64,000 nt of DNA from an uncultured Bacilli bacterium (GCA_934097085.1 CAKONK010000004.1:1907-65906), one strand, 5' to 3'; positions 9,135-43,701 are shown, counted from the first letter of the stretch. Numbers and translations: made by a program. The notes: generated by a model from the letters alone, not told the origin.

Positions 9135-9286
9135 ATTTATCCTCCTTCCATTTTAAGTATATCAAAATTAATAAAAAATTAAATATTATTTATCAAGTTT
9201 TTATAAAAATGGATACAAAAATATTCAAATAACATCTTTTTTTTATTAACTTTTTAGTGTATACTATTAATATAATAGGTGAGAAA

Positions 9287-10594
9287 ATGAATAAAGAGGT
9301 TAATAACAATTTAAATGAAAATACTACGCAAGAAGATATTGAGTTTTTAACTACAGCAGTTCCCATAATAAAAGACTTAAATGATGAACAAATTGAAATG
9401 CTTACTACTTCACTTCCAGTTATTAAGGATTATACTGAAGAAGAAATAGATGAATTAATAAAAAAGATTCCTTCATTAAGTAGGGATGATATTGCTAAAA
9501 TTAAAGAAGCTTTAAAACCAGTTGAAAAACAATCTAATAAAGAAAAAATTATAGATTTATTAAAGACAAAAAGATCTAAATTATTAATTATTTTAGGTAT
9601 TTTAATAATTATTTTAACAGTAATAAGTGTTGGAACTAGTTTTGCATTATCCTCACAAAATGAAGAGTATGAAAATTATTTTTTTGAAATAGATAAAAAG
9701 GAAAATCCTAATATGGAAATATATAATATTCCTAAAGATAGTCCAAACTTTATAAAAGATTCTAAAGCCTCACAAATTGTAAGTTGTATGCAAAGTAATA
9801 CTCCAATAGAAAAGTTACCAGAAAGTGTTACTTCAGTTATAAATGAAATAAATGATTACTATAATGAATCAATAAATCGTTTTGCATATAAATATGTTGA
9901 TATTTATACGGGTTTTACTGTTAGTTATAATGAAAATCAGCATATATTTACTGCTTCGACAATTAAAGCACCAACAGACATATATATTTATGAAAATGCT
10001 GAAAATGGATCTATCGATTTAGAGGAAAAACTTTTATATACAAAAAAATATTATAATCCTGGTGCTGGTTATATTAAATTAGGCGAGGAAAATACTTATT
10101 ATACTGTAAGAGAACTTGTTAAAAATTCTGCATATTATAGTGATAATGTAGCTCATACTATGCTTATGGATAGATTTAATAAAGATGATATGCTTGCTTT
10201 TTGGAAAGCTAAGGGTACAAATGCTATATTTACAAGACCAACTATATGGGGTGAAACAAGTGCTCATGATGCCGCAATTTATATGAATGAACTTTATAAT
10301 TTTTATGAAAAAGGTAGTGATATAGCAAAAGAACTTATGAGTTATTTTACTGATAATGGAGGTCAGTTTTTAACTCCTCCACAGGGATTGACCTCTGCGA
10401 ATAAAAGTGGCTGTGCTGGCTCTGTAATGCATGATATATCTATAGTTTTTGATGAAAATCCATATATTGTTATTGCTTTATCAAATTTAGGTTGCTTATC
10501 TGCAGGTTCTTATTTTGAGGATGTATCTAATCTTACTTATAAACTTCATAAAGCATATTGGGATTATAAAGTATCCTCTTGTATTAATAAATAA
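9287..10594 (+). CDS. class A beta-lactamase-like serine hydrolase with N-terminal TM anchor and repeat region
   Basis: STIK (SxxK), SDN and KSG motifs in class-A order and spacing; SD aggtgag before ATG 9287. Confidence 0.55.
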   Translation: MNKEVNNNLNENTTQEDIEFLTTAVPIIKDLNDEQIEMLTTSLPVIKDYTEEEIDELIKKIPSLSRDDIAKIKEALKPVEKQSNKEKIIDLLKTKRSKLLIILGILIIILTVISVGTSFALSSQNEEYENYFFEIDKKENPNMEIYNIPKDSPNFIKDSKASQIVSCMQSNTPIEKLPESVTSVINEINDYYNESINRFAYKYVDIYTGFTVSYNENQHIFTASTIKAPTDIYIYENAENGSIDLEEKLLYTKKYYNPGAGYIKLGEENTYYTVRELVKNSAYYSDNVAHTMLMDRFNKDDMLAFWKAKGTNAIFTRPTIWGETSAHDAAIYMNELYNFYEKGSDIAKELMSYFTDNGGQFLTPPQGLTSANKSGCAGSVMHDISIVFDENPYIVIALSNLGCLSAGSYFEDVSNLTYKLHKAYWDYKVSSCINK

Positions 10595-10760
10595 TTATTA
10601 GAAATTAATTAAATTATTAATTAGATTAATGATTTATATATTTGCTTAGAAAAGCCCATATATTTGGGCTTTTTAATTGTTAAAATGTGGTAATTAGTTT
10701 ACATAATTTGACGATTTGCATATTTTATGGTATAATTATTTTGTTATTCAGGGGGAAAGA

Positions 10761-11411
10761 ATGAATAAAAATGATTATGTCCTCCATAATATATGGAGAA
10801 TGAATAAAAAGGAAATCAATAATTTTAATATAAAAAAAATAACTAATTTTGGTATTGCACTATGTATGATGTTTACAATAATTTTTGCTCCAAGTGTGCA
10901 AAGAGTAAAAGAGGTTAATACTAAAGTATCTTCATTTGATAATTATAATGCTAATATTACTAAAGAAGATAAAGTAGAATACATTTTAAGTAAGTATAAT
11001 TTGACTAAAAATGAATTTAATACTTTAACTGCAATAGTTTTATCTGAGGCACAAAGTAATTCTTATGAAGATGCCTATGCAGTAATTAATACAATTTATA
11101 ATAGAACTCATGCTAAAAATTGGGTTAGAAGTTGTAGTAGTTACTTTGGTAAAAGTAATGGACAAAGTTTATACTATCAAGCAATTATGCCTAATCAGTT
11201 TGTTGTTTATCAACATGGTACTTTTACTAGATATTTAAATAGAACTGATTTAAATGGTTATAATGCTGTTATTGACTTTTTATACGATGAAAAAATAATG
11301 CATAATTATTTATCATTTAGGGCTAATAATATAGTAGTAACTGGTTCTGAAAAATTTAGTACAATGGGTAATAACTATTTTAATACTTTAGAGGAAGGTA
11401 ATAGAATTTAA
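10761..11411 (+). CDS. cell wall hydrolase, SleB-like (Hydrolase_2 family)
   Basis: LTAIVLSEAQSNSYEDAYAVINTIYNRT resembles the SleB catalytic-domain signature; SD gggggaaag before ATG. Confidence 0.5.
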   Translation: MNKNDYVLHNIWRMNKKEINNFNIKKITNFGIALCMMFTIIFAPSVQRVKEVNTKVSSFDNYNANITKEDKVEYILSKYNLTKNEFNTLTAIVLSEAQSNSYEDAYAVINTIYNRTHAKNWVRSCSSYFGKSNGQSLYYQAIMPNQFVVYQHGTFTRYLNRTDLNGYNAVIDFLYDEKIMHNYLSFRANNIVVTGSEKFSTMGNNYFNTLEEGNRI

Positions 11412-12670
11412 CTTTCCTTTTTATTTTGAAAAATATTCATATATTTATTATAAAGTTTTTCATTTTTAGAAATATTTAACTTTTTACATCCATTTTTATA
11501 TATTTTTGCAAGGTTATAGTAGGCATAATAACTTCTCTCAGAAATAGGACAGTTAATTGCTTTATTAAAATAAAACAATGCATCTTTATAATTACCTTCA
11601 TTAATGCATATTTCTCCCATTTTATTTAATGCCCAACTATTTAATAAATCAGCACTTAATTTATAGTAGTTTTTAGCAAGTTTTAAATCATTATTTTTTT
11701 CATAATGCATTCCTAAATTATTATAGGCATATGCATAACCATATTCTGCAGCTTTTTTAAAGTATTTAAGGGCAGTATCTTCATTAATATTTAAATAATA
11801 TCTTCCTAAAGTATTAAGAGCTGCAATACTTCCTAAATCTACAGCTTTATTTAAAAAATTTAACATTATATCAACATTTTTTTCTTTAACTTTATTAGAA
11901 AATATTAAATTACCAATCATCCAAGATGCTTTAGGATGTCCTTTTAAAGCAGCTTTCATATAATATTCATAGCACTTTTCATAGTCTATTTTTCCACTTA
12001 TTAAACCACTATATTCCAGTGATCCAAGTTGTGCATTAGCATACATATTATCTTTTTGTGCAAGAATTTTTAATGAGTTAATATAACTTATTCCTTCATA
12101 AAGATTTATTTTTAAATATTCCTTTAATTCATATTCATTAACATTAATTATAACTTCATCAAATATTGGTTGTTTATTTTCAAGTACTCCATAAAATAAT
12201 AATTCAATGAGAGCTTCATAATAATTGTTATTATCTAAATAATTATTTATTTTTTCTATAAAATTATTGGAAACATTTTCATCCTTTAGATGTAATATAT
12301 CTAAACAAACTTTTTTAATCTTATAATTTTCATTTATTATTTTAATATTAAGATCATCACACTTAATTATTTTTTCCTCTAAAATAGAGATTATATTAGA
12401 AAATATTGGTATAAATACTTCTTTATTATTAGAATAATTTTCTTTTAAATCTAAATATATTTTTTTATATTCTATTCCTATAGGCCTATATCCAATTAAA
12501 TAATTATTTACTGTAGTAGTTTTAATATCATTTATATTAAATACCCCACAAAATACTTCTTTTTGAATACCTGAGGCTTCAACTTTAGAATGTTTTTTTA
12601 TTATATTTATAATATTACCTAAAGATAAATAATTTTTACCATCATTCATTTTAATAAATTTCTTTTTCAT
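11408..12670 (-). CDS. Sel1/TPR-like repeat protein
   Basis: 420 aa; repeated A-x-x-LG-x-x-Y...G Sel1-type motifs in the C-terminal half. Confidence 0.6.
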   Translation of the reverse strand: MKKKFIKMNDGKNYLSLGNIINIIKKHSKVEASGIQKEVFCGVFNINDIKTTTVNNYLIGYRPIGIEYKKIYLDLKENYSNNKEVFIPIFSNIISILEEKIIKCDDLNIKIINENYKIKKVCLDILHLKDENVSNNFIEKINNYLDNNNYYEALIELLFYGVLENKQPIFDEVIINVNEYELKEYLKINLYEGISYINSLKILAQKDNMYANAQLGSLEYSGLISGKIDYEKCYEYYMKAALKGHPKASWMIGNLIFSNKVKEKNVDIMLNFLNKAVDLGSIAALNTLGRYYLNINEDTALKYFKKAAEYGYAYAYNNLGMHYEKNNDLKLAKNYYKLSADLLNSWALNKMGEICINEGNYKDALFYFNKAINCPISERSYYAYYNLAKIYKNGCKKLNISKNEKLYNKYMNIFQNKKES

Positions 12671-12770
12671 ATAACACCTATATTTATTATATCGTGGATT
12701 TATGTGGATTTCAAAATATTCTTTTTTTTATAAATTTAAAATATAATTTTAATAGGAAGGAAGTAAAGAA

Positions 12771-14009
12771 ATGAAAAAAATATTTAAAAATTACAAATCT
12801 ACAATAATTATGTTTATTTCTGTTATTGTAGGAACTATTATTGGAGTTATCTTTAAAGAAAAGGCTACTATATTAAAACCTTTTGGGACTTTATTTATTA
12901 ATTTATTACTTACTATTATAGTACCACTTATATTTTTAACTTTAAGTACCTCTATTGGTAAAATGAAAGAACCAAAAAGACTTGGTAAAATATTAATTAC
13001 TATTATTGGAATATTTGTTTTAACATCACTTATAAGTGTTTTAATAGGTATTGCTTCGACTAATATAACTTTAGTTAATAAAAAAGATAGTATAAAAATA
13101 AAAGAATCATTTGATTATTCAATTACTGATAATGATGAAAAACTTGATATTTTAACAAGAACTGTTAATGCAATTTCCACTGATGATTTTGTAAAAATAA
13201 TTTCTAAAGATAATATTATTGCTTTAATTGTTATATCTATTTTAACTGGTCTTGCTATTCATTTTGCAAAAGATAAAGGTAGAAAAGCTTTAGAAGTATT
13301 AGATAGTTTTAATGATGTGCTTCAAATGCTTATTAAAATTATTATGTATTATGCTCCAATTGGAATAGGGGCTTACTTTGCCTCTTTTGTTGGAGAGTTT
13401 GGTGCAGGTGTTGCCACAAGTTATTTAAAGATGCTTATTATTTATACAGTATCATGTGCATTTGTTTATTTCGTTATTTATAGTTTATATGCCTTTATTT
13501 CAGGTGGTAAAAAAGGATTAAAACTATATTGGCAAAATATAATGGTACCATCAGCTACAGCTCTTGCTACGTGCTCTTCAGCAGCATCAATTCCGGTTAA
13601 TACAAAAGCCGCAAAAAATATTGGGGTTTCTGATGATATAGCAGATACTATAATTCCTCTTGGTACATCATTTCATAAAGATGGTTCAATTATAGGTAGT
13701 GTATTTAAAATAATGTTCTTAGTATATTTATTTGGTATGGATGTTAGTACTTTTAAAGTTCTTGGAGTAAGTATATTAGCAACAATTTTAATTACAGCAG
13801 TACCTATTGGTGGAGGAACTATTTCAGAAATGCTTATTATTAGTTTAATGGGCTTTCCTATAGCAAGTCTTCCAATACTTACAATAATAGCCACAATAAT
13901 AGATGCTCCAGCAACACTTTTAAATGTAGTCGGAGATAGTGCAAGTAGTATGCTTGTTGCAAGAATTATTGATGGTAAAAACTGGCTTAGTAAAAAACAA
14001 AAATTCTAA
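12771..14009 (+). CDS. dicarboxylate/amino acid:cation symporter (DAACS, GltP/SstT family)
   Basis: 412 aa polytopic; typical DAACS motifs (PIGIGAYFASF, SSAASIPV, VGDSASS). Confidence 0.8.
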   Translation: MKKIFKNYKSTIIMFISVIVGTIIGVIFKEKATILKPFGTLFINLLLTIIVPLIFLTLSTSIGKMKEPKRLGKILITIIGIFVLTSLISVLIGIASTNITLVNKKDSIKIKESFDYSITDNDEKLDILTRTVNAISTDDFVKIISKDNIIALIVISILTGLAIHFAKDKGRKALEVLDSFNDVLQMLIKIIMYYAPIGIGAYFASFVGEFGAGVATSYLKMLIIYTVSCAFVYFVIYSLYAFISGGKKGLKLYWQNIMVPSATALATCSSAASIPVNTKAAKNIGVSDDIADTIIPLGTSFHKDGSIIGSVFKIMFLVYLFGMDVSTFKVLGVSILATILITAVPIGGGTISEMLIISLMGFPIASLPILTIIATIIDAPATLLNVVGDSASSMLVARIIDGKNWLSKKQKF

Positions 14010-14031
14010 GATTTATTCTTAGATTTTTTTT
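14005..14031 (+). terminator. rho-independent terminator
   Basis: tctaag-atttatt-cttaga hairpin followed by an 8-T run. Confidence 0.5.
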
Positions 14032-14269
14032 AGAAAAATAATAAATATATAAAACTCTTACAAATCAAGGTATTACCTTGTTCGTATTTTCTTAAATCTT
14101 ATACATTTGAGAAAACATACCCTCGTATTTTCGTACCTTACTACTAAATTATAGCATCAATTTATTTAAAAATCTAGTACCATATTCCGTAAAATAGACA
14201 TTAAATTTTCCTATATGTATAAGATTTAAGAAAAATGACCCCAGTATTTATAAGGGATAGGAGTATAGT

Positions 14270-16126
14270 ATGAATAGAAGTAAAATAACAAAATCGTTAG
14301 CGGTGTTCGCCTCAGTAATATTGATAATCATTATAGGCGTGGCATCATTTGCATATTTTGGAACATTTAGTGTAAATTTAAATAATAATGTAGCAGTAAA
14401 TATAAATTCATCTAGTCCAGGAAATTCAACATTTATCGCAAATGCAACTCAGTTAAATTTAGTAGTCCCAGCGGCAGATATGAGTTTTACTCAGGCAAAT
14501 AATACAGTAGCTGCAAAAGAAGATACAGCATATTTAGATGTAACACTTACAGGTTCACCAAATTTACTTACAACATGTACATATGATATAGTTTATGAAT
14601 ATAATTCGGGAAGTAATGTATATGGACAGGGTACAACAACAAAAACAAGTGGAGCAGATAAAGAAATAACAATAGAAGTAAATGGAATGAATGGAAATAA
14701 TCATTTTGCAGAAGAAACAAATTTTGATTATGCTAATATTCAAAGTTATTATGATAGTACAAATAAATATTATAAGCTAGTTGAAAATGCCACAATAAAA
14801 AGTTTGGGAACAGAACAATCAGTAAGATGGAAAATAATAGGAAGGTATTATAATTTAGATGTAAGTCAAGCACAATTAAGTGGAAAAAACTTTACTGGTA
14901 AAATATATGCAATAAGTAAAGGATGTTCCTCAGAAGATGGTACAACTGTTAAAAAAGGTTATGAAACAATTGTGGCAAATAATGGTGGCTCAGCAAGTAT
15001 GACAACTCTTACATCAACAGATTTTGCAACGGTTACTACAGAAAATGACAAAGGAATGTATAAAGCAACAGATGACTTAGGAACATCATATTATTTTAGA
15101 GGAGCAGTAGATAATAATTGGGTAAAATATGGTAAAGAAACTGCATGTACTTTTAATGGGTCGAAAGTAGTATATGTAGATTCAAAATTTAATTTTAGAA
15201 ATGTAAAAGATGAAGAAGAATGTGTATCCACAACTTTATGCAGTGCTATGGGTGCATATGCAGTAGGATTAAGTGATGATATGTGTACTTCTGCAGGGGG
15301 AGTACCAATAGGTAAAAAAGGTACATATTCTACCCAGGATATGTATTGGCGAATAATAAGAATCAATGGCGATAATTCAATAAGAATGATATATACAGGA
15401 AACGATGCACCAAGTGCTTCAACAAGTGTAATAATGACGGGTTATAAAACTGTGAGTAGTATTAATAGATTTAATACAAATTATGATAGTGCAGAATATG
15501 TAGGATATATGTATACGATAGGAGAGCAACATGGAACAGGAAAAGATAGTACAATAAAAACAGCATTGGATGATTGGTATGCAAATCATACAGATTTAAA
15601 TAAAACTGGAACAAAAATAACAGATCAAATATATTGTAATGATAGAACAGCATCAACTTCAGATGCAGAATATTCAACAACAAATTACACAACACTAACA
15701 AGTTGGAATTCAACTGGAACTACTTATTATTATGGAGCATATGGAAGAATAGCTAAAGATAATAATCCAATGTTAACCTGTGCAGTGGATAGTGATAGAT
15801 TTACAGTTAATAAAACAAATGGTAAAGGAAATAGTGCATTAACATATCCTGTAGGTTTGATAACAATAGATGAGTTGGAAATGGCAGGAAACAATTGGAG
15901 TGAAAGCAACACGAGCTATTATTTACATACTGGAGCTAACTATTGGGCGGGCTCCCCTTATGGATTCGATAGTAATGGTGCTTATGAGTTCCGTGTGGCT
16001 TATGATGGCATTTTGAGCGACTATTTTGTCGATTACAATTTTGGCGTGCGTGGTGTAGTTTCTCTATCCTCTGATGCTAAGTTACTTGGCAGTGGTACAT
16101 ATGATGATGTGTATGTAGTAAGTTAA
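14270..16126 (+). CDS. DGR target (variable) protein: N-terminal TM anchor, large ectodomain, C-terminal C-type-lectin/DUF1566-like variable region
   Basis: 618 aa; C-terminal 40 aa (YWAGSP...GVRGV) contains the VR matching the downstream TR; higher GC than surroundings. Confidence 0.8.
   Translation: MNRSKITKSLAVFASVILIIIIGVASFAYFGTFSVNLNNNVAVNINSSSPGNSTFIANATQLNLVVPAADMSFTQANNTVAAKEDTAYLDVTLTGSPNLLTTCTYDIVYEYNSGSNVYGQGTTTKTSGADKEITIEVNGMNGNNHFAEETNFDYANIQSYYDSTNKYYKLVENATIKSLGTEQSVRWKIIGRYYNLDVSQAQLSGKNFTGKIYAISKGCSSEDGTTVKKGYETIVANNGGSASMTTLTSTDFATVTTENDKGMYKATDDLGTSYYFRGAVDNNWVKYGKETACTFNGSKVVYVDSKFNFRNVKDEEECVSTTLCSAMGAYAVGLSDDMCTSAGGVPIGKKGTYSTQDMYWRIIRINGDNSIRMIYTGNDAPSASTSVIMTGYKTVSSINRFNTNYDSAEYVGYMYTIGEQHGTGKDSTIKTALDDWYANHTDLNKTGTKITDQIYCNDRTASTSDAEYSTTNYTTLTSWNSTGTTYYYGAYGRIAKDNNPMLTCAVDSDRFTVNKTNGKGNSALTYPVGLITIDELEMAGNNWSESNTSYYLHTGANYWAGSPYGFDSNGAYEFRVAYDGILSDYFVDYNFGVRGVVSLSSDAKLLGSGTYDDVYVVS
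15943..16057 (+). repeat. DGR variable repeat (VR)
   Basis: 115-bp match to TR (17038..17152); 21 differences, all at TR adenines; 3' GC-rich ggcgtgcgtggtgta identical in both. Confidence 0.85.
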
Positions 16127-16164
16127 GCTAGAAAGAAGGACTACTTCTCTGAGAAAAGAAAACA

Positions 16165-16183
16165 GCACAATCCTCGATTGTGC
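16165..16183 (+). promoter_or_regulatory. GC-rich perfect hairpin downstream of VR (DGR homing-associated stem-loop candidate)
   Basis: gcacaatc-ctc-gattgtgc, 8-bp perfect stem, about 110 bp after VR 3' end. Confidence 0.5.
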
Positions 16184-16247
16184 GTCGGGCGAAAAATAAA
16201 ACTTAGTGTGGTTGTAGTGTTGAAAAAGTAAAACATACTAAAGTTGT

Positions 16248-16266
16248 ACGCCCCTTTATGGGGCGT
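16248..16266 (+). promoter_or_regulatory. second GC-rich hairpin between target gene and Avd
   Basis: acgcccc-tttat-ggggcgt, 7-bp perfect stem. Confidence 0.45.
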
Positions 16267-16295
16267 ATATTCCACGAAGTGGCAGAAAGGAAAGT

Positions 16296-16637
16296 ATGCA
16301 GTCATTTAAATTAATTAATAAAGCAAATGAATTATATGATTATTCATTTACTTATATTTTAAATAAAATGCCAGGTAAGGCTAAGACTTTTAGGATTGCT
16401 TTGGAAAGTGAATTATATGAGTTAATACATAATATCTATAGAGCAAATATAAATTATGAAAGTGAAAAAATAAGAAGTAAATATCAAAAAGAAGCCTTAG
16501 TGAATTTAAGTACACTTGATTTAATAATAGGTCTTGTGGGAAAGCATAAATACATTAAAATGAAAAGAGTACATGGGTTTTTAGGAATACTTAATGATAC
16601 TAAAAAAATGATGTATGGTTGGATTAAAGAAAAATGA
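16296..16637 (+). CDS. avd: DGR accessory variability determinant (Avd), four-helix-bundle family
   Basis: 113 aa basic protein; MPGKAKTFRIALESELYELIHNIYRAN fits the Avd/four-helix-bundle signature; sits between VR and TR. Confidence 0.65.
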   Translation: MQSFKLINKANELYDYSFTYILNKMPGKAKTFRIALESELYELIHNIYRANINYESEKIRSKYQKEALVNLSTLDLIIGLVGKHKYIKMKRVHGFLGILNDTKKMMYGWIKEK

Positions 16638-16933
16638 ATGATGCACTTTCTAAAATATACGATGATTTGAATGAACTTGTAATGAGAAAAATTCCTCATG
16701 ATAAAGAATTATTAAGTACAAGAATTATTAAAGAACATACTAAGATATGCGAATACACTTTTAATATAATAAATTCTAATAAGGATAAAAATTATATGTT
16801 AGAATTTAAAGTTAGTGTGAAATATATATTATTTGTTCTTGAATACTTTGTTAGTAAAAAAATTATTAATGAAGAAGTTTATAAAACTTTTGAAAAAGAA
16901 TACAAAAATTTATATTTTTTAGTAAACCCTTAA
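16634..16933 (+). CDS. second Avd-like four-helix-bundle protein (paralog?)
   Basis: 99 aa; ATGA-overlapped with avd; IPHDKELLSTRIIKEHTKICEYTFNIIN resembles the same family motif. Confidence 0.4.
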   Translation: MNDALSKIYDDLNELVMRKIPHDKELLSTRIIKEHTKICEYTFNIINSNKDKNYMLEFKVSVKYILFVLEYFVSKKIINEEVYKTFEKEYKNLYFLVNP

Positions 16934-17037
16934 TTTTCTAATTAAGGTAGACATATTATTTTTGGGATTTATGATAATGTGTCTACCATAGTTAAAAAGC
17001 TTTGGGAAGTAAATATTGCTGATAGGGATATGCTACT

Positions 17038-17152
17038 TTGGGCGGGCTCCCCTAATGAATTCAATAGTAATAATGCTAATGAGTTCAATGTGAATAATGA
17101 TGGCAATTTGAACAACAATAATGTCAATAACAATAATGGCGTGCGTGGTGTA
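17038..17152 (+). repeat. DGR template repeat (TR)
   Basis: Asn-codon (AAY)-rich; 16 AAY codons; counterpart of VR; the listed ORF 16979..17215 is an artefact of the TR. Confidence 0.85.
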
Positions 17153-17362
17153 TTTTCCTTACAAAATGAGTATTATTACACAAAGTATTTACTTTATGAA
17201 TGTAATTACTCTTAGACAAATTATGGATAGGAAACAAGCATATTCCTTGGCATTATGCCTAAAATGAAAGTGATGAAGAGAATAGTGTTTATTATATAAT
17301 CGCTTCCTAGTAATACTTTTAATAGCTGTCAGCAATATTTATAAAATTAATGAAAGGAAGGG

Positions 17363-18703
17363 ATGTTTGTAACTGAATTTAATATTGATGAGATATTTAG
17401 TTATGAGAGTGTTGTGTGGGCTTATCATAATGTATGTAAAAATTGTCGGTCATCAATAAAAAAAACTAAGTTTACTTATTTTGCAAATTCTAATATATTT
17501 GATATTTATAATAAATTAAGGGATTTAAGTTATAAATTTTCAAAATATACAATCTTTATAATAAAAGATCCAAAATATAGAGTAATTATGAGCGATACAA
17601 TATATGATAAAATAGTTAACTATTTAGTGGCATATAAAGTGTTACTTCCTGTTTTATCACCAACATTAATTGAACAAAATGTTGCAACTAGGAAAGGAAA
17701 GGGTGCTAGTAAAGCTTACTATTTTTTTGAAAAATATGCAAATAAGTTAAAAGAAAATGGAAGTGTTTATGTTTTAAAAATAGATATAAAAAAATATTTT
17801 TATAATATAAATCATTCAGTGTTATTAAAAATGCTGAAAAAATATATAAGTAGTAGTATGTTAAGTAATTTTATTGTAAATATAATTAATCAGACAAATA
17901 ATGATTATGTAAATAATAATATTAATTATTTAAAAAACAAAATAATACAAGATTTAAATTATAAAAGTATTTCTTTAAAAGAAAAAGAAGAATTAATAAA
18001 AAAAATATATGAAATACCATTATATGATAATGGAAAAGGGCTTTCAATTGGAAATGTTTGTTCTCAAATATTAGCGGTATTCTATTTAAATGAATTCGAT
18101 CATTATATGAAAGAAAAAATTAAATGTAGATGTTATTTAAGATACATGGATGATATAGTAATTTTAAGTAATAGTAAATCATTTTTAAAAGATGTATTTT
18201 ATTTAGCAAATGATAAATTAAAGGAATATAAACTAACTATTAATCCAAAAAGTAACATATATAAATTAAATAATTCTTTTACCTTTTTAGGAAGAACTTA
18301 CTATTTAAAAAATAATATACTTTTATATAGATGCAGAAGCACTACATATAAAAGTATAATGAAAAAATTAAATTATTTAAGAAATAATGATTTCAAAAGT
18401 TATTATTTGAGTAAAATAAGTTACAAAGGTTATTTAAATAAAAATATATATTCTTTAAAAGAAGAGTTCGATTTTTTAAGTAATAAATATAATAATGTAA
18501 TAGTTAAAGATTTTATATATGAAGTTGGGTATGTTATTAGAAGTAATGTTAGTGATGATGTTATTAATGAGGTTTTAGATAATATTGGGATAAGTGTTAT
18601 AAATATTTTTAATATTAAAAGATTTATTAAATATTTTGAATCAAATAATATAAAATATATATATTTAGAAAAAACAAAAATTGTTTTTAAGTATGATTGC
18701 TAG
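17363..18703 (+). CDS. DGR reverse transcriptase
   Basis: 446 aa; motif 4 IGNVCSQ (DGR-specific I/LGxxxSQ) and motif 5 YMDD. Confidence 0.85.
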   Translation: MFVTEFNIDEIFSYESVVWAYHNVCKNCRSSIKKTKFTYFANSNIFDIYNKLRDLSYKFSKYTIFIIKDPKYRVIMSDTIYDKIVNYLVAYKVLLPVLSPTLIEQNVATRKGKGASKAYYFFEKYANKLKENGSVYVLKIDIKKYFYNINHSVLLKMLKKYISSSMLSNFIVNIINQTNNDYVNNNINYLKNKIIQDLNYKSISLKEKEELIKKIYEIPLYDNGKGLSIGNVCSQILAVFYLNEFDHYMKEKIKCRCYLRYMDDIVILSNSKSFLKDVFYLANDKLKEYKLTINPKSNIYKLNNSFTFLGRTYYLKNNILLYRCRSTTYKSIMKKLNYLRNNDFKSYYLSKISYKGYLNKNIYSLKEEFDFLSNKYNNVIVKDFIYEVGYVIRSNVSDDVINEVLDNIGISVINIFNIKRFIKYFESNNIKYIYLEKTKIVFKYDC

Positions 18704-18833
18704 GATAAAGCCTAGCTTTTATTATGTAAATGATTTTACATATTTATATGTGTTAATTAATGTCAAATAAATTATAAAAAAAGTGTCAAAAATGTGTAAA
18801 ATTTTAATTTTTTTTAAGAAATTTATTAAAAAA

Positions 18834-18918
18834 AGGAGGAAATCAGAAATTTACCGGTAATAAATATAATGAAGGGAGGAAATCAGAAATTTACCGGTAA
18901 TAAATATAATGAAGGGAG
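18834..18918. repeat. tandem direct repeat, 2 x 40 bp plus partial third
   Basis: ggaggaaatcagaaatttaccggtaataaatataatgaag repeated exactly with period 40 (18841 vs 18881). Confidence 0.7.
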
Positions 18919-18985
18919 AAAAATACAAAGTTATAAAAAAAATGTGAAAATGTAAACTATTGTAAATTAGAAAGCGAGGTAAAAA

Positions 18986-19330
18986 ATGAACGAATTAGAA
19001 AAAATTAATGAAACTATTTTTGAAAGTATTAAACATGTAGATGATGAAGGTAATGAATATTGGTATGTAAGGGAATTACAATATATTCTAGGGTATAATC
19101 AGTGGCGAAGTATAAATGATTTAATTAAAAGAGCAAAAGTTGCTTGTAAATAAAGCGATAATAATATTCATGACCATTTTGCGGTACAACGCAAAATGGT
19201 TGATATAGGTTCAAAGACACAAAGAGAAGTTCTTGATTATAAACTATCCAGATATGCTTGTTATTTAATTGCTTAAAATGGTGATAGTAGGAAAAAAGTT
19301 TAAAAGAACTAAAAAAAGAAAATAACAATT
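18986..19330 (+). pseudogene. dinD/Bro-N family gene fragment (stop and frameshift), fused to the conserved 3' junction
   Basis: MNELEKINETIFESIKHVDDEGNEYWYVRELQYILGYNQWRS...VACK then stop; continues out of frame ...KLSRYACYLIA. Confidence 0.6.
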
Positions 19331-19363
19331 TAATTATAAAAAATAGAAATGGAGGTAACTAAA

Positions 19364-20197
19364 ATGAATGAATTAGAAAATATTAATGAAACACTATTTG
19401 AAAGTATTAGACATGTAGATGATGAAGGTAATGAATATTGGTATGCAAGGGAACTACAAAAGGTATTACAATACAACAAATGGGAAAACTTTAAAAAAGT
19501 AATTTTAAAGGCAAAATTGTCCTGTAATGCAAGTAGTTGTGAAATTTCAGAACAGTTTCTTGATATCAGGAAACCGATAATAGGTGGTAATGGAAATGTT
19601 CAATATGTATGTGATTATAAACTATCTAGATATGCTTGTTATCTTATTGCTCAAAATGGTGATAGTAGAAAGAAAGTTATAGCTCTTGCTCAAACATATT
19701 TTGCTATTCAAACTAGGAAACAAGAATTATTAGAGAAAGAATATAATAGTTTAACTGAAGATGAAAAAAGATTCTATCAAAGAGATCTAACTAAAAAAGG
19801 AAATTATTCCTTAAATCAAACTGCTAAAAAGGCTGGAGTAAAGAACTTTGATAAATTTCATAATGCTGGGTATAAAGGTTTATATAATGGAGAAACAGCA
19901 AACGATATTGCTAAAAGAAAGGGATTACGGTATAGGGAGGATGTTTTAGATAATATGGGAAGTGATGAACTGATAGCTAATTTATTTAGAATATCTCAAA
20001 CTAATCAAAGACTTAATAATGATAATATTCAAGGTGAAAAAGCAGCTTGCTTAACACATAATAAAATTGGAAAAATTGTTAGAAAAGCTATAAAAGAGGC
20101 TGGTGGTACAATGCCTGAGGATTTACCAACACCAGATAAAAGTTTAAAAGAACTAAAAAAAGAAAATAATAATCTAATAATTAAAAATAGAAAGTGA
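19364..20197 (+). CDS. DNA-damage-inducible protein D (DinD)-like, Bro-N domain protein, copy 1
   Basis: Matches DinD as I recall it (HLSRYACYL..QNGD, GQTYFAIQTR, HMGS.ELAANLFR.TQT, GGTMPE.LPTP); SD ggaggt before ATG 19364. Confidence 0.7.
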   Translation: MNELENINETLFESIRHVDDEGNEYWYARELQKVLQYNKWENFKKVILKAKLSCNASSCEISEQFLDIRKPIIGGNGNVQYVCDYKLSRYACYLIAQNGDSRKKVIALAQTYFAIQTRKQELLEKEYNSLTEDEKRFYQRDLTKKGNYSLNQTAKKAGVKNFDKFHNAGYKGLYNGETANDIAKRKGLRYREDVLDNMGSDELIANLFRISQTNQRLNNDNIQGEKAACLTHNKIGKIVRKAIKEAGGTMPEDLPTPDKSLKELKKENNNLIIKNRK

Positions 20198-20205
20198 GGT
20201 AAAAA

Positions 20206-20560
20206 ATGAACGAATTAGAAAAAATAAATGATACTATATTTGAAAGTATTATACATGTAGATGATGAAGGTAATGAATATTGGTATGCAAGAGAACTGCA
20301 ATATATTTTAGGGTATAATCAGTGGCGAAGTATAAATGATTTAATTAAAAGAGCTAAAGTTGCTTGTAAAGGAAGTGAAAATAATGTTGATTATCATTTT
20401 GCGGTCTACCGCAAAATGATAAATATTGCAAAGGGTGCAACTAGAAATGTGATATAAACTATCCAGATATGCTTGTTATTTAATTGCTTAAAATGGTGAT
20501 AGTAGGAAAAAAGTTTAAAAGAACTAAAAAAAGAAAATAACAATTTAATTATAAAAAATA
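20206..20560 (+). pseudogene. dinD/Bro-N family gene fragment, near-duplicate of 18986..19330
   Basis: 83-aa N-terminal ORF then frame break; same junction sequence. Confidence 0.6.
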
Positions 20561-20578
20561 GAAATGGAGGTAACTAAA

Positions 20579-21418
20579 ATGAATGAATTAGAAAATATTA
20601 ATGAAACACTATTTGAAAGTATTAGACATGTAGATGATGAAGGTAATGAATATTGGTATGCAAGGGAACTACAAAAGGTATTACAATACAACAAATGGGA
20701 AAACTTTAAAAAAGTAATTTTAAAGGCAAAATTGTCCTGTAATGCAAGTAGTTGTGAAATTTCAGAACAGTTTCTTGATATCAGGAAACCGATAATAGGT
20801 GGTAATGGAAATGTTCAATATGTATGTGATTATAAACTATCTAGATATGCTTGTTATCTTATTGCTCAAAATGGTGATAGTAGAAAGAAAGTTATAGCTC
20901 TTGCTCAAACATATTTTGCTATTCAAACTAGGAAACAAGAATTATTAGAGAAAGAATATAATAGTTTAACTGAAGATGAAAAAAGAATATATCAAAGAAA
21001 TCAAGCAAGAAAAGGAAATTATAATTTAAATAAGACAGCTGTTAATAGTGGAGTAAAAGATTTAGCAAGATTTCATAATGCTGGTTATAAAGGCTTATAT
21101 AATGGTGAAACCGCTGATGATATTTTTAAAAGAAAAAAATTAAGATATAGGGAAGATATTTTAGATAATATGGGAAGTGAAGAACTTGCAGCGAATTTAT
21201 TTAGAATAACTCAAACTGAATCTAAATTAAAAAAAGATAATGTAAGTGGTGAAGGTAATGCAATTGATACTCATTATGAGGTTGGTAAAGAAGTTCGTAA
21301 TACAATAGAAAGATTAGGCGGTACTATGCCTGAGGATTTACCAACACCAGATAAAAGTTTAAAAGAAATTGAAAAAGAAAACAATTTAATTATAAAAAAT
21401 AGAAATGGAGGTAACTAA
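20579..21418 (+). CDS. DinD-like Bro-N domain protein, copy 2
   Basis: First ~140 codons DNA-identical to copy 1 across the inspected stretches, C-terminal half diverged. Confidence 0.7.
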   Translation: MNELENINETLFESIRHVDDEGNEYWYARELQKVLQYNKWENFKKVILKAKLSCNASSCEISEQFLDIRKPIIGGNGNVQYVCDYKLSRYACYLIAQNGDSRKKVIALAQTYFAIQTRKQELLEKEYNSLTEDEKRIYQRNQARKGNYNLNKTAVNSGVKDLARFHNAGYKGLYNGETADDIFKRKKLRYREDILDNMGSEELAANLFRITQTESKLKKDNVSGEGNAIDTHYEVGKEVRNTIERLGGTMPEDLPTPDKSLKEIEKENNLIIKNRNGGN

Positions 21419-21419
21419 A

Positions 21420-22247
21420 ATGAATGAATTAGAAAATATTAATGAAACTATATTTGAAAGTATTATACATGTAGATGATGAAGGTAATGAATATTGGTAT
21501 GCAAGGGAACTTCAACAAATACTCGGTTATAAAGAATGGAGGTATTTTTCTGCAGTCATAGAAAAAGCACAAATTGCTTGTTCTCAAAGCAATAACAATG
21601 TTAATTCCCATTTTGGTGTAAACACCAAAATCGTATCTGCTGGTAAAGCTACAAAACCAATAATTGACTATAGATTAAGTAGATATGCCTGCTACTTAAT
21701 TGTCCAAAATGCAAACCCTAAATATGAAGCCGTATCTTTAGGACAGACATATTTTGCTGTACAAACGAGAAAAATGGAATTAACTGAAGAAGAATATGGC
21801 AGATTAACAGAAGATGAAAAAAGACTATATAGGAGAAGGCAAACAAGAGACGGCAATAAAATTTTATATAAAATTGCTAAAGAAAAAGGAGTTAAAAACT
21901 TTGATAAGTTTACTAATGCTGGGTATAAAGGATTATATAATGGAGAAACAGCACACGATATTGCAAAACGAAAAGGTTTAAGATATCGAGAAGATATACT
22001 AGATAATATGGGTAGTGTTGAATTTGGTGCTAATATATTTAGAATAACTCAAACAGAAGCATTACTTGAAAAACAAGAAGAGCCAAATGAAATAATTGCC
22101 ACAAATACTCACTACAAAGTGGGAAAAACAGTTAGAAAAGCAATTGAAGATTTAGGCGGTACAATGCCAGAAGATTTACCAACACCAGATAAAAGTTTAA
22201 AAGAATTAGAGAAAGAAAATAAAAATTTAATAATTAAAAATTATTAA
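21420..22247 (+). CDS. DinD-like Bro-N domain protein, copy 3 (diverged throughout)
   Basis: Same family motifs; start overlaps end of copy 2 via the conserved junction. Confidence 0.7.
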   Translation: MNELENINETIFESIIHVDDEGNEYWYARELQQILGYKEWRYFSAVIEKAQIACSQSNNNVNSHFGVNTKIVSAGKATKPIIDYRLSRYACYLIVQNANPKYEAVSLGQTYFAVQTRKMELTEEEYGRLTEDEKRLYRRRQTRDGNKILYKIAKEKGVKNFDKFTNAGYKGLYNGETAHDIAKRKGLRYREDILDNMGSVEFGANIFRITQTEALLEKQEEPNEIIATNTHYKVGKTVRKAIEDLGGTMPEDLPTPDKSLKELEKENKNLIIKNY

Positions 22248-22506
22248 TGAAATGGTATTTAAAGGGATTAAACATATTGATGAGAATGGAAATGAATATT
22301 GATATGCAAGAGAATTGCAAAATGTGAAAAGGTGGAATAAATTTTGTAATGCACTAGAAAGTGCACAAATTGCCTGTGGTGTTAGCAATAATAATGTGTC
22401 AGACCATTTTTCCCACTTGGGAAAAATGGTCAATATTGGCTCTAATACTTTTAAAAATATAGTTGATTACAAACTGTCGAGATATGCATATCACATAATG
22501 TTTTAA
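22248..22506 (+). pseudogene. dinD/Bro-N family terminal fragment
   Basis: ENGNEY then stop then YARELQ...DYKLSRYAYHIMF; truncated, ends the array. Confidence 0.5.
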
Positions 22507-22613
22507 ACTTAAATGAGAAAAAATAAATAAAGTCACATTAATGTCACTTTACAATGTTATATTATATTTGTATAAATTTATTTTATATAATATAATTTAT
22601 GTAGGAGGAAAAT

Positions 22614-24827
22614 ATGAGTAAAGATAAACCAATACTTAGTTTAAAAAAAGTTAGTAAATTCTATTATAATAAAGGTCTTGTTGCATCAGGTTTTAGTAAA
22701 ATATCTTTAGATTTTTATTTAGGAGAATTTGTTGTAATAACTGGAGAAAGTGGATGTGGAAAAAGTACTCTTTTAAATGTATTATCAGGTCTTGATACAT
22801 ATGAAGAAGGAGAAATGTATATTAATGGCATGGAAACAAGTCATTATAGTAATGAGGAAGCAGAGCATTATCGTAAAAGTTATATAGGTAATATATTTCA
22901 ATCATTTAATTTAGTAAGTAGTTATACTGTGTATCAAAACATTGAGTTAGTGCTTTTATTAAATGGTTTTAAGAAAAAAGATATTAAAAATAAAGTTATT
23001 GAATTAATTAAGGAAGTGGATTTATACAAATATAGAAATAGTAAAGTTTCTCATTTATCTGGTGGTCAAAAACAAAGAGTGGCTATTGCTAGAGCACTTG
23101 CAAAAGATGTACCTATAATAATTGCTGATGAACCAACAGGTAATTTAGATCGTAGATCTGCAGCATCTATAATGAAACTACTTGCAAAAGTAGCAAAAGA
23201 TAAACTTGTAATTGTTGTAACTCATAATTATGAAGATGTTGAGGATCTTGCTACTCGTAAAATTGAAATGCATGATGGAAAAGTTCGTGAGGATATAACG
23301 ATAAAACCTTATGAAGAAAGTAAAATTGAGCTTCATGAATATAAAAATATTAGTTTTTTAAATAAAATTAGACTTGGAGTAAGAAATACATTTAATTTAC
23401 CTATGAAGTTTATTTTACTTTTAATGGTATTCTTATTAATTACTTTTGCTTTCTTAGGAATATATTCTTCATTTAGAAAAGCAGAGTATGAAGAAAATAA
23501 AAATGGTTATAATTATTATTTTAGTGATTTATCTGATGAAAGAATTGTAATTAAAAAAAGTGATAATAGTGTAATAACAAATGAAGAATTAGATAAAATA
23601 AGTAAACTTGATTATGTAAAATCAGTAGTAAAGGATGATATAATTTTAGATGCAACATATAGTTTAACTGATGATAATACTTTTTGGTTTTATGGTAATG
23701 TAAAAAGTATACGTGAACTAAAATCTAATATCGAGGGTCGAAAACCTATTAATGATAATGAAATAATATTAGAAACTAATAAAAATAATTATTATGTTTC
23801 AACTTTAAAAGATAAGTTAAAAGAAACAAAACTTAGTTTAAGAAATACAGATAATATATCAAGTTCAAATAAAGATTTAAAAGTAACTGGATTTGTTCTT
23901 AAAGATAAGGAATATGATAATGATATTTTTTATGTAAGTGATGAAGTATTAGAAAAAATAAAAATAAATAGTTATGAAAACTATAGTAAGGTTACAATTA
24001 CCTTAAATAATCAAAGAGTAGATTTACTTTATAGTGTTAGTGATAAAGTACCTAAAGGAAAAGCAATTGTTCCATATGAACTTAATGTAATGTGTAAATA
24101 TAGTTGGTGTAAAAATAATATATTAAATATTAATGTTAAAAATATTTATTATGAAAATAATGTAGATTTAGAAATTAGTGATATGTATTTGAAATATAAT
24201 TTTGAAAATTTAACAGGTGTAAAAGATTATGAAAATAATAACTCTGTAATATATATTTCAAAAGAGGATTATTTATCTTTATTTGATATGGGAACTTATC
24301 AATCATCAATTTATTTGAAAGATGTAAAGGATATTCCCGAGGCTAAATGTTATCTTGAAATGAATGGATTTAAACCATTATTTATTAAAGATGCCAAAAT
24401 AAATTATTCAAATGGTGTTTTGGAAGTTATTAAAATATTTAAATTAATAGTTATGACTATTATATTTATTGTACTTTTCTTTATAGCATATTTTGTTATT
24501 AGATTAATTGAAAAATCAAGAAATGTTTATTATGCAACATTAAGAATTCTCGGAGCAACTAAAAAAGTATTAAAGAATTTAATTAATATTGAATTATTTT
24601 TAATATATCATATTGCTTTTGCTATAATACTAGGGTTATGTATTTTAGTTAAGAATAATATTATTGTTAATAATAATTTATATGATATGGTTAAATATCT
24701 TGGTATAAAAGACTATATTTTTGTATATGTTATATGTTTTGTAATGAGCATTCTTATATCATTTAGATATTCAAGAAAACTATTTAATTCATCAGCAATG
24801 AAAACTTATAGGGAGGAGGCAGAGTAA
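22614..24827 (+). CDS. ABC transporter, fused ATP-binding and FtsX/MacB-type permease domains
   Basis: 737 aa; Walker A GESGCGKST, signature LSGGQKQRVAIARAL; TM, large extracytoplasmic domain, then 3 C-terminal TMs. Confidence 0.7.
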   Translation: MSKDKPILSLKKVSKFYYNKGLVASGFSKISLDFYLGEFVVITGESGCGKSTLLNVLSGLDTYEEGEMYINGMETSHYSNEEAEHYRKSYIGNIFQSFNLVSSYTVYQNIELVLLLNGFKKKDIKNKVIELIKEVDLYKYRNSKVSHLSGGQKQRVAIARALAKDVPIIIADEPTGNLDRRSAASIMKLLAKVAKDKLVIVVTHNYEDVEDLATRKIEMHDGKVREDITIKPYEESKIELHEYKNISFLNKIRLGVRNTFNLPMKFILLLMVFLLITFAFLGIYSSFRKAEYEENKNGYNYYFSDLSDERIVIKKSDNSVITNEELDKISKLDYVKSVVKDDIILDATYSLTDDNTFWFYGNVKSIRELKSNIEGRKPINDNEIILETNKNNYYVSTLKDKLKETKLSLRNTDNISSSNKDLKVTGFVLKDKEYDNDIFYVSDEVLEKIKINSYENYSKVTITLNNQRVDLLYSVSDKVPKGKAIVPYELNVMCKYSWCKNNILNINVKNIYYENNVDLEISDMYLKYNFENLTGVKDYENNNSVIYISKEDYLSLFDMGTYQSSIYLKDVKDIPEAKCYLEMNGFKPLFIKDAKINYSNGVLEVIKIFKLIVMTIIFIVLFFIAYFVIRLIEKSRNVYYATLRILGATKKVLKNLINIELFLIYHIAFAIILGLCILVKNNIIVNNNLYDMVKYLGIKDYIFVYVICFVMSILISFRYSRKLFNSSAMKTYREEAE

Positions 24828-27223: not shown

Positions 27224-27357
27224 CTATATCTTTTTTTGTGGACTAAAAACTTTATATAATAATTTATTTACAAAAAAGGTAAAAATCATATCATAAAATG
27301 TAAAGTAGTGACAAATAAGTTTGTTAATATTTAACTAGTGTTATATAATTATACTAG

Positions 27358-28563
27358 GTGATAAAAAATATGAGAAATGTAGGAACAGTAGTAAGGGGAA
27401 TAAGAACTCCTGTAATTAAAGAAAATTCTAATTTAGAGGACATTGTTGTAGATAGTCTTTTGAAAGCTAGTGAAAGTGATAATTTTACTTTTCACGATAA
27501 AGATATTGTTGCAGTAACTGAAGCAGTAGTAGGTATTGCAATGGGAAACTATGTAACAGTTGATGAAATTGCTAAAGATATTAAAAATAAATTTGGTACT
27601 AACCATATAGGTGTGGTTTTTCCAATTCTTTCAAGAAATAGATTTGCAGTACTTTTATCTGCAATAGCAAGAGCAATGGATAAAATAACTTTACAAATAT
27701 CTTATCCATCAGATGAAGTAGGTAATGATATTTTAGATAAGAAAAGGTTAAAAGAAAGTGGAATAAATCCATATACTGATGTTATTGATGAAAAAACATA
27801 TTATGAAAAATTTGGTGATTTTAAACATATTTTTACTGGTGTTAATATGGTTGATTTCTATAAAGATTTAGTAAAAAAAGAAAATTGTGAAATAGAAATT
27901 ATATTAGCAAATGATCCTAAAAAGATTTTAAATTATGAAAAAGATGTTCTTGTTTGTGATATTCATACAAGATTTGAAACAAAAGCTACTTTAAAAGCAA
28001 ATTCAGATGGTATTATTTTAGGCCTTGATGATATTTTAACTAGTCCAGTTGATGGAAGTGGATGTAATGAAAAATATGGTTTACTTGGCTCTAATCGTTC
28101 TACTGAAGAAAGAGTTAAATTATTTCCTAGTAATGCTCAAGGTTTAGTAGATAATATTCAAAGAAAATTATATGAAAAAACTGGTAAAACTATTGAAGTA
28201 ATGATTTATGGCGATGGTGCGTTTAAAGATCCAATTGGTGGAATATGGGAACTTGCTGATCCAGTAGTATCTCCATATTATACTAAAGGCCTTGAGGGAA
28301 GCCCAAATGAAATAAAACTTAAATATATATCTGATAATAAATTCAGTAATTTAAGTGGGGAAGAGTTAAATGAGGCTATTAAAAATGAAATTAGAACTAA
28401 AGATTCTAACCTTAAAGGAACAATTGCCTCACAAGGAACAACACCTCGTAGATATGTTGATTTAATAGGTTCACTATGTGATTTAACCTCAGGTTCAGGT
28501 GATAAAGGAACTCCAGTTGTATATATTTCAGGCTATTTTGATAATTATAGTGTAGACAATTAA
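27358..28563 (+). CDS. hypothetical protein (weak CofE/F420-ligase-like N-terminal similarity)
   Basis: 401 aa; no confident motif. Confidence 0.3.
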   Translation: MIKNMRNVGTVVRGIRTPVIKENSNLEDIVVDSLLKASESDNFTFHDKDIVAVTEAVVGIAMGNYVTVDEIAKDIKNKFGTNHIGVVFPILSRNRFAVLLSAIARAMDKITLQISYPSDEVGNDILDKKRLKESGINPYTDVIDEKTYYEKFGDFKHIFTGVNMVDFYKDLVKKENCEIEIILANDPKKILNYEKDVLVCDIHTRFETKATLKANSDGIILGLDDILTSPVDGSGCNEKYGLLGSNRSTEERVKLFPSNAQGLVDNIQRKLYEKTGKTIEVMIYGDGAFKDPIGGIWELADPVVSPYYTKGLEGSPNEIKLKYISDNKFSNLSGEELNEAIKNEIRTKDSNLKGTIASQGTTPRRYVDLIGSLCDLTSGSGDKGTPVVYISGYFDNYSVDN

Positions 28564-35203: not shown

Positions 35204-35536
35204 ATGGTATTAACGTATAAAAATAATAAACTTCGTAAGTTATGTGAGGACTCACAATCTAATAAAGAGTTGTTAAAGAAATATGGTAGTGATGTTGCAA
35301 TTAAGTTACCAAAAAGAATTATACAATTGAAGTCATTTGCTTGTTTAGCAGATGTTCCTGTTGTTCCTCCTTTTAGAAGGCATAAATTAAGTGGTAATTT
35401 AAAAAATTTGTATGCAATTAATATTAATGATCAATACAGATTAATTTTTAGACAAGTAGAGAATAATATAATAGTAGAAAATTTAAAAGATATAAAAGAA
35501 ATAGAGATAATGGAGGTGTCTAAACATTATGAGTAA
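35204..35536 (+). CDS. higB: type II toxin HigB (RelE/ParE superfamily, plasmid-maintenance killer protein)
   Basis: 110 aa; FRRHKLSGNLKNLYAININDQYRLIF matches the HigB family core. Confidence 0.65.
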   Translation: MVLTYKNNKLRKLCEDSQSNKELLKKYGSDVAIKLPKRIIQLKSFACLADVPVVPPFRRHKLSGNLKNLYAININDQYRLIFRQVENNIIVENLKDIKEIEIMEVSKHYE

Positions 35537-40272: not shown

Positions 40273-40288
40273 AAAGGAGTGATATTTT

Positions 40289-41407: not shown

Positions 41408-41419
41408 AAAGGAGTTTTT

Positions 41420-42316: not shown

Positions 42317-42317
42317 T

Positions 42318-43698: not shown

Positions 43699-43701
43699 AA
43701 G

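Follow-up and report, generated by a model that had tools for sequence, protein, structure and literature searches.

Diversity-generating retroelements (DGRs) are the most extreme protein-diversifying systems known and are dense in the human gut; to our knowledge, the means by which cells regulate expression of the diversified proteins are little understood. This question is raised by a stretch of 64,000 nucleotides from an uncultured Bacilli bacterium (GCA_934097085.1, CAKONK010000004.1:1907-65906; hereafter the window, at its full length), in which an earlier note, made without database searches, had described a complete DGR at positions 14270-18703. Is this element a genuine and working DGR, does it belong to the cell or to a phage, and what does it diversify under which control? 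The answer reached here is that the locus is very probably a functional DGR of the host chromosome, hypermutating a membrane-anchored protein placed behind an invertible promoter. The core DGR described in the earlier note is correct but ordinary, a standard mechanism in a host chromosome; what merits following up is that its target is coupled to a phase-variable promoter, that it has a second gene of the Avd-like type and that its reverse transcriptase (RT) is extended.

Based on ORF calls and repeat alignment, the target gene with its 3' variable region (VR), avd (accessory variability determinant), the template repeat (TR) and the RT gene are all present, and with a 99-aa ORF they follow one another on the plus strand in the order target-VR, avd, 99-aa ORF, TR, RT (Table 1). 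The parts list of the earlier note thus stood as far as it went, but it had missed the 99-aa gene, an extension of ca. 90 aa at the C-terminus of the RT, and the invertible element upstream of the target. A repeat finder returned one long direct repeat (15943-16062 versus 17038-17157), within which VR and TR differ at 21 of 115 nt. All 21 mismatches occur at TR adenines, as the earlier note had expected of a genuine pair, and in the reading frame of the target all occupy codon positions 1 or 2; with 40 adenines among the 115 TR bases, the chance of such a pattern is 2.3e-10. The Asn-rich pseudo-translation of TR was also borne out, with 17 of 38 codons of the AAY type, and mutation can reach a stop codon from no TR codon. 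The raised GC content noted for the VR-TR core was found as well, at 0.44 across VR versus mostly 0.15-0.30 in the window. VR is closed by a G+C-rich block, GGCGTGCGTGGTGTA (16043-16057), with the same 15-mer in TR and divergence of the repeats beyond it, as expected for the initiation of mutagenic homing site (IMH) versus its TR counterpart (IMH*). No second VR or target paralogue was detected in the window. Public gene callers annotate a 78-aa protein over TR (16979-17215), which corresponds to the Asn-rich pseudo-translation and is almost certainly not a gene.

Signs of activity come from comparisons with public gut metagenomes, where an exact copy of the target protein was found together with six near-identical versions, differing almost solely at residues 564-592. 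Compared with the window, a Hadza contig has 28 differences over 4874 bases, of which 24 lie within the 115-nt VR and none in TR. Across four natural VR alleles associated with an identical TR, the 35 variable columns all fall at TR adenines (35/35), and none of the 75 non-adenine positions differs between VR and TR in any allele. A VR that varies while its TR stays constant is, as far as sequences tell, the signature of mutagenic retrohoming in natural populations, and the restriction of the variable columns to TR adenines therefore indicates recent activity of the element in gut populations. The VR variation that the earlier note had looked for was thus recovered among strains; like the inversion described below, it was assessed by comparing assemblies, not reads. 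That the DGR is instead a fossil, its repeats recording past mutagenesis, appears very improbable. The signs of activity are indirect, the target promoter of the window lies in the presumed OFF orientation, and pseudogenised target paralogues occur elsewhere, all of which would suit a fossil. Yet the three protein genes and TR are intact, and the TR is 100% identical across strains having VRs that differ at 18-24 adenine-templated sites, when the rest of the cassette differs by 0.1-3%; the lack of any mismatch at the 75 non-adenine positions also speaks for a working element.

The RT carries the two motifs reported in the earlier note, the DGR-type motif 4 IGNVCSQ at residue 229, which conforms to the pattern I/LGxxxSQ, and YMDD at residue 261. 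Its best relative in the PDB is the RT of the Bordetella phage DGR (bRT, 8ub7; E=1e-20), with group II intron and retron-type RTs following at 1e-5 to 1e-6. In NCBIfam, this protein matches models for group II introns, Drt3a and Drt2, which might suggest another class of retroelement (group II intron, retron or defence RT) next to a coincidental repeat; these matches are, however, all far under the cut-offs, the closest solved structure and the IGNVCSQ motif are those of DGR RTs, no group II intron or retron RNA was identified in the window by Rfam, an avd gene adjoins, and an adenine-only repeat of this kind has a probability of 2e-10, so that the probability left to this alternative is negligible. 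The Rfam scan of the window returned three tRNAs only, with no match in the DGR region. A-biased repeat pairs were found in ca. 55 of 88 loci encoding related RTs, and the DGR of the window therefore belongs to a large DGR lineage. The C-terminal extension of the RT (residues ca. 356-446; 18428-18703; ca. 90 aa) has no family match and is limited to loci that also carry the 99-aa ORF (L006-L009 and L095-L097), the RTs of other relatives ending near residue 360.

Table 1. Coordinates of the DGR locus and its associated elements in the window
Feature	Position	Strand	Remarks
Inverton, 148 bp	14087-14234	.	IRL 14087-14106, 108-bp core 14107-14214, IRR 14215-14234; perfect 20-bp inverted repeats
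Putative promoter within inverton	14148-14176	-	Extended -10 TGCTATAAT 14156-14148; -35-like TAGATT 14176-14171; 17-nt spacer
DGR target gene, 618 aa	14270-16126	+	N-terminal helix ca. 3-28; central region without known family; C-terminal module ca. 480-618 bears VR
VR	15943-16057	+	Gap-free alignment to TR
Three hairpins, target-avd spacer	16165-16282	+	H1 16165-16183 (8-bp stem, CTC loop); H2 16247-16267; H3 16272-16282
avd, 113 aa	16296-16637	+	NF033474 and PF22296 matches; pI 9.67
Avd2 (ORF99), second Avd-like gene, 99 aa	16634-16933	+	Predicted four-helix bundle; 4-nt overlap with avd stop codon
Strong hairpin between Avd2 and TR	16935-16998	+	Holds best local promoter-like site TAGACA-16-TATGAT, 16948-16975
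Helix bracketing TR and first ca. 85 nt of spacer	17024-17247	+	17024-17034 pairs with 17237-17247, 11 bp
TR, non-coding	17038-17152	+	40 adenines in 115 nt; offset to VR 1095
DGR RT, 446 aa	17363-18703	+	RVT_1 E=8e-20; motifs

The DNA of the window is the chromosome of an uncultured low-GC bacterium of the human gut. A contig of a GTDB genome, a gut metagenome-assembled genome (MAG) titled 'uncultured Mycoplasma sp. MGYG-HGUT-04242', encodes a 100% identical RT, the 120 RT relatives found in GTDB genomes are nearly all from gut MAGs labelled Bacilli, Tenericutes or Mollicutes, and some relatives of the target carry the name Candidatus Ventrenecus. A family scan of all ORFs of at least 90 aa in the 64 kb identified housekeeping or transport genes, including those for a SpoU methylase, a cysteine desulfurase-type aminotransferase, BipA, SecE-NusG, UvrA, ABC transporters, a Tad-like pilus cluster and sugar-nucleotide enzymes, and no phage structural gene, integrase or recombinase. 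Consistent with the earlier note, a sodium:dicarboxylate (DAACS) symporter is encoded upstream and a DinD array downstream of the element. This tandem array (18827-22506), 3' of the RT gene, comprises three DinD (Bro-N) genes of full length, with scores exceeding the NCBIfam cut-off, and three fragments; it is preceded by two 40-nt direct repeats (18827-18906) carrying the ribosome-binding site, and its copy number and arrangement vary among strains (L086, L088, L007).

The chromosomal, non-prophage context proposed in the earlier note was supported. Flanking phage structural, lysis or integration genes and similarity to phage genomes, the marks of a prophage-borne DGR, were both missing from the window, with no match of its DNA in 50,697 phage genomes, and the 2.9 million viral contigs of IMG/VR contain no close relative of the RT (best identity 29%). 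Several observations might nonetheless point to a mobile or phage-derived module, such as a prophage remnant of which the DinD/Bro-N genes are leftovers: Bro-N domains are common in phages, the cassette and its invertible element occur in at least two chromosomal contexts, one of them beside an IS3-family transposase, and the flanks of the window slot are 97-100% identical between genomes when the cassette is 58-89% identical, which looks like allelic replacement. One IMG/VR contig (L148) also covers the upstream part of the region. Against this origin, which we regard as unlikely, the viral contigs hold no close RT relative and the phage genomes no match, no capsid, tail, terminase, portal or integrase gene was found in the 64 kb, the target has the architecture of a membrane-anchored protein and not of a tail fibre, and the part of L148 that overlaps the window corresponds to ordinary chromosomal genes. 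According to published surveys, 70-90% of catalogued DGRs are chromosomal (PMC5758913), and the location of the present one in a host chromosome is therefore not novel.

The L148 contig (IMGVR_UViG_7000000444_000293) is the sole IMG/VR contig with the junction of the invertible element; it matches the chromosomal genes orf231-TPR-symporter at 96% and shows no relation to the window over its first 6.1 kb, so that another strain may have a predicted viral region next to this locus. When contigs L007 and L089 are compared with positions 9257-28563, the diverged cassette (target 58-74%, RT 71%, DinD 70-77%) occupies the same slot between near-identical flanking genes, an arrangement suggestive of allelic replacement at a hot spot. 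The 581-aa target of L089 is followed by a gene on the minus strand.

What the element diversifies is a protein whose N-terminus displays basic residues followed by ca. 22 hydrophobic residues. In an otherwise unusable AlphaFold2 model of the full-length target (71 sequences; mean pLDDT 37.7), residues 3-28 alone were predicted as a long helix. These features suggest a signal anchor at the N-terminus, with the remainder of the protein probably outside the cell, and fit the cell-surface protein of the host put forward in the earlier note. The DUF1566-like character claimed there for the C-terminal motif was not supported: PF07603 gave no match for the target at E<=0.01, nor for its C-terminal 262 residues or for 27 relatives at E<=1, and it was DUF6273 (PF19789) that matched instead, in relatives. 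In the C-terminal region shared by 28 related DGR targets, sub-threshold DUF6273 matches were obtained for six, on the C-terminal half of the model; a profile of the target family had no match in the PDB. An exhaustive search with target residues 480-618 returned 3184 representative clusters, the top match of which, P0273, carries the module seven times and clearly belongs to DUF6273 (100.5 bits versus a cut-off of 23.5). The P0273 module aligned to the target (403-543) overlaps its DUF6273 match (472-529), an indirect, transitive link by which the C-terminus of the target may be assigned to a DUF6273-type module. The likeness of DUF6273 to C-type lectins (CLec) is known from the literature alone. 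P0273 (3528 aa) and a second giant protein, P0274 (4905 aa), carry the 135-aa VR-bearing module 7 to 11 times in tandem, along with Ig-like and Listeria-Bacteroides repeats.

The control of this gene appears to lie in the invertible element, or inverton, which ends 36 bp upstream of it and is delimited by the inverted-repeat motif TTTTCTTAAATCTTATACAT; the window contains this repeat nowhere else. In two public contigs, L086 and L087, the segment 14087-14234 is present as the exact reverse complement (100%) between collinear flanks, and the bases just inside the inverted repeats swap sides, as predicted for site-specific inversion. Contig L006, which has the window orientation, belongs to the same strain as these two flipped contigs, with 3 of 6921 nt differing outside the element and identical VRs. 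The inverton also precedes the diverged cassettes of L007 and L095-L097, as well as a common '76%' allele class found in another chromosomal context. A metagenome scan with its left junction identified 50 human-gut loci, and 56 instances in public contigs could be classified, of which 36 share the orientation of the window and 20 are flipped. Of the 22 distinct cores, two are represented by identical sequences in both orientations. In addition, eight contigs break off within the inverton, as expected where both forms coexist.

The inverton core contains a putative promoter. Its -10 box (TATAAT or TATTAT; TGcTATAAT in the window) and -35-like box (TAGAtt/TAGTCA), 17 nt apart, are kept in 22 of 22 cores, including the most diverged ones, and point to the gene in the flipped orientation only. 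The flipped form is therefore read as ON and the window form as OFF, the copy of the window being presumed OFF from the direction of its boxes. A generic promoter scan of the window orientation found gene-facing sites at chance level only.

Could the inversion be an assembly artefact, or a fixed structural polymorphism instead of a reversible switch? It is known from assembled contigs only, the core of the inverton is partly palindromic (64-nt arms, 70% complementary), and no invertase was identified in the window or beside other copies, a motif screen confined to the loci compared here having returned only one tyrosine-recombinase-like ORF, 10.6 kb from one copy. But the 20-bp repeats are shorter than assembler k-mers, and the flipped form appeared independently in SPAdes and MEGAHIT assemblies of different samples, and also in other cassette alleles. 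Both explanations must also contend with identical cores in both orientations, one strain seen in both states, an exact exchange of the sequences inside the repeats, and eight contigs breaking within the element, as expected of mixed populations. An artefact or a fixed polymorphism is thus distinctly improbable, and a reversible promoter switch is the reading we retain.

Nearly all inverton copies are located 164 nt upstream of a gene of the target family. Many of these inverton-bearing genes have no avd or RT gene within several kilobases, and several contigs display two inverton copies, which suggests a phase-variable multigene family with only some members acting as DGR targets. Examples of target paralogues with their own inverton are found in L108, L114, L128, L136, L141, L143, L144 and others, with no avd or RT gene within 4-11 kb. 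One of these paralogues, in L108, was considered as a remote DGR target and compared with the TR of the co-assembled contig L122; since only 28 of 39 mismatches fell at adenines, the match was not clean and provides no evidence for targets in trans. Decayed members were also identified (L098, L100, L104, L142), in which a single inverted-repeat copy, with neither core nor second repeat, precedes a target-family pseudogene with a stop at codon 29.

More tentatively, these data may be read as a two-tier system, which we put forward as a possibility that is yet to outweigh its alternatives. A family of lectin-like, membrane-anchored proteins of gut Bacilli would be switched ON and OFF gene by gene through one type of invertible promoter, and selected members would in addition be rewritten by a DGR with Avd/Avd2 and the extended RT. 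Copies of one invertible promoter across the family would imply a single shared invertase. The TR-RT unit apparently has its own upstream signals, and the VR could therefore be diversified while the target is silent, the outcome being displayed only upon a flip.

The protein encoded downstream of the target was identified as Avd by matches to the NCBIfam Avd equivalog NF033474 (E=3.6e-9) and to the Pfam bAvd family PF22296 (E=3.3e-7). Its homologues adjoin the RT in 42 related loci, and its basic pI lies in the published range for Avd proteins, 9.5 +/- 0.7 (PMC5758913), in agreement with the earlier note. An avd gene is carried by 74% of surveyed DGRs, and two avd genes were found in 1 of 372 (PMC5758913). 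In the window, the unannotated 99-aa ORF, hereafter Avd2, is predicted to fold as a second Avd-like four-helix bundle. Its AlphaFold model has a pLDDT of 89.8, and the 13 best matches of this model in the PDB all belong to the Avd/S23-IVS family; among them are bAvd on its own (4dwl) and as part of the DGR ribonucleoprotein (8ubb_D), with TM scores of 0.78-0.79 and an rmsd of 2.2 A. BLASTP analyses of Avd2 against Avd and a search of the PDB sequences with its profile gave no match, and the profile-profile alignment of the two proteins (hhalign) was collinear and in register, though weak (E=0.0019); the assignment consequently rests on the predicted structure. Unlike Avd, Avd2 is nearly neutral (pI 7.8). 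Its 26 homologues among 5.8 billion proteins are all at least 73% identical, and the gene is confined, together with the RT extension, to the RT subclade represented by L006-L009 and L095-L097; more distant relatives have the order target-TR-avd-RT. Avd and Avd2 may form a heteromeric scaffold. In two distant DGR loci, L012 (7661-7969) and L014 (581-877), the reading frame of the Avd homologue is interrupted by a stop codon under table 11; these genes may be pseudogenes or belong to hosts with an alternative genetic code.

Conserved RNA or DNA structures were predicted on both sides of avd. The spacer between target and avd has a folding z of -4.2, and its three stems are all kept with a changed sequence in the diverged cassette L009, for example by a G:C to A:T double change converting ACGCCCC/GGGGCGT into ACACCCC/GGGGTGT. 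These hairpins may be a target-recognition cruciform or a regulatory 5' leader for avd. Promoter and terminator scans around avd and TR remained at chance level. The 5' arm of the helix that brackets TR ends 3 nt before the repeat, and an outer extension pairs 17010-17023 with ca. 17327-17343. This helix is retained by 10 of 10 cassettes, three of its pairs carrying compensatory changes and none being broken, and the spacer hairpin 3' of TR provides four more compensatory pairs; overall, 16 of 85 predicted pairs show double changes. The covariation of the bracketing helix and of the spacer hairpin supports a structured TR-spacer RNA, as expected of a working DGR.

In the mechanism that we propose for this locus, the transcript of TR and of the downstream spacer would fold, with the conserved helix enclosing TR, and the RT with Avd, probably also with Avd2, would copy TR into cDNA, misincorporating opposite adenines. 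This cDNA would replace VR at the 3' end of the target gene, and ca. 20 codons (17 AAY codons) would be re-randomised in the last, DUF6273-type lectin-like module of the protein. The target would be held in the membrane by its N-terminal helix with this module exposed outside the cell, and a site-specific recombinase would flip the 148-bp segment bearing its promoter, either to face the gene (ON) or into the state of the window (OFF). For cDNA synthesis and retrohoming we infer these steps by homology with the DGR of Bordetella phage BPP-1; promoter activity of the inverton boxes is suggested by their sequence, and both the surface exposure of the target and the role of Avd2 in the DGR are likewise presumptive.

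Several points weigh against this explanation. Hypervariation and inversion within populations are deduced from comparisons between assemblies, and promoter activity from consensus and conservation alone, the generic scanner having failed to flag it; no invertase was found among the window ORFs or beside other inverton copies. The target protein itself has no match in Pfam, NCBIfam or the PDB sequences, and a full-length model with a pLDDT of 37.7 does not show a CLec fold. Both family matches of Avd score under their curated cut-offs. At the sequence level, Avd2 is linked to Avd only weakly (probability 14% in hhalign), and the four-helix bundle is a common fold. The spacer hairpins lie 108-190 nt away from VR, a greater distance than that of the BPP-1 cruciform.

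The locus resembles the BPP-1 DGR (mtd-avd-TR-brt) in its order, target with 3' VR, avd, TR and RT, in the adenine-only differences between VR and TR, the AAY-rich TR codons and the G+C-rich block at the 3' end of VR, as well as in its proteins, with bRT (8ub7) as the closest solved relative of the RT and Avd as a four-helix bundle. In contrast to BPP-1, it resides in a host chromosome and not in a phage, its target is anchored in a membrane and is not the tip of a tail fibre, its RT is ca. 120 aa longer than bRT (446 aa versus the 328-aa chain of 8ub7), and it has an extra Avd-like gene, an invertible promoter upstream of the target and hairpins more than 100 nt from VR. Chromosomal DGRs with host surface targets have reportedly been described for Treponema denticola TvpA and Legionella LtdA. 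As in surveyed chromosomal DGRs, the element of the window is encoded by the cell and its VR occupies the C-terminal end of a protein with a predicted membrane or surface location; unlike TvpA/LtdA-type and surveyed targets, which are lipoproteins or have a CLec of the FGE type, this protein is signal-anchored with a DUF6273-type module. Gut Firmicutes DGR clades have been assigned mostly to phages (Roux et al. 2021, PMC8144416), whereas the present lineage looks cellular. The DUF6273 targets of DGRs in gut Firmicutes phages, namely the tentaclins (PMC10743442) and those of Faecalibacterium prophages (PMC11792537), also have VR at the C-terminal end of a DUF6273-type module; these are, however, phage receptor-binding proteins, in contrast to a host protein with an N-terminal anchor and a sequence below Pfam detection.

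With regard to the switch, a short promoter segment between inverted repeats is shared with Mycoplasma penetrans mpl, E. coli fimS and the Bacteroides invertons, and is here found in 56 copies upstream of paralogues, several per contig. The closest analogue of these paralogue invertons is the M. penetrans mpl (P35) system, where a promoter segment between inverted repeats lies upstream of each gene of a surface-protein family and flips independently (PMC10502178). Unlike mpl products, the proteins described here are not lipoproteins, and one or more members of the family are also hypermutated by a DGR. The literature searched contained no description of a DGR target under the control of an inverton, an absence that is not proof of novelty. 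The locus physically joins a DGR target to a phase-variation switch, and the same switch is spread over a paralogous family in an abundant uncultured gut lineage. It thus offers a test case for coordinated hypermutation and expression, for instance by diversifying a silent gene and then displaying its product, and points to a protein family of RF39-like Bacilli whose members are candidate adhesins or receptors. With its second Avd-like protein and its extended RT, the element may form a DGR ribonucleoprotein of a variant type.

Elsewhere in the window, the Tad/Flp-like pilus cluster (39502-45228) comprises an RcpC/CpaB-like protein, a T2SSE-family ATPase and several ORFs without family match. 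A toxin-antitoxin-like pair was also identified at 35204-36596, where a HigB-like toxin gene is followed by a gene with HTH and M78 peptidase (IrrE-like) domains.

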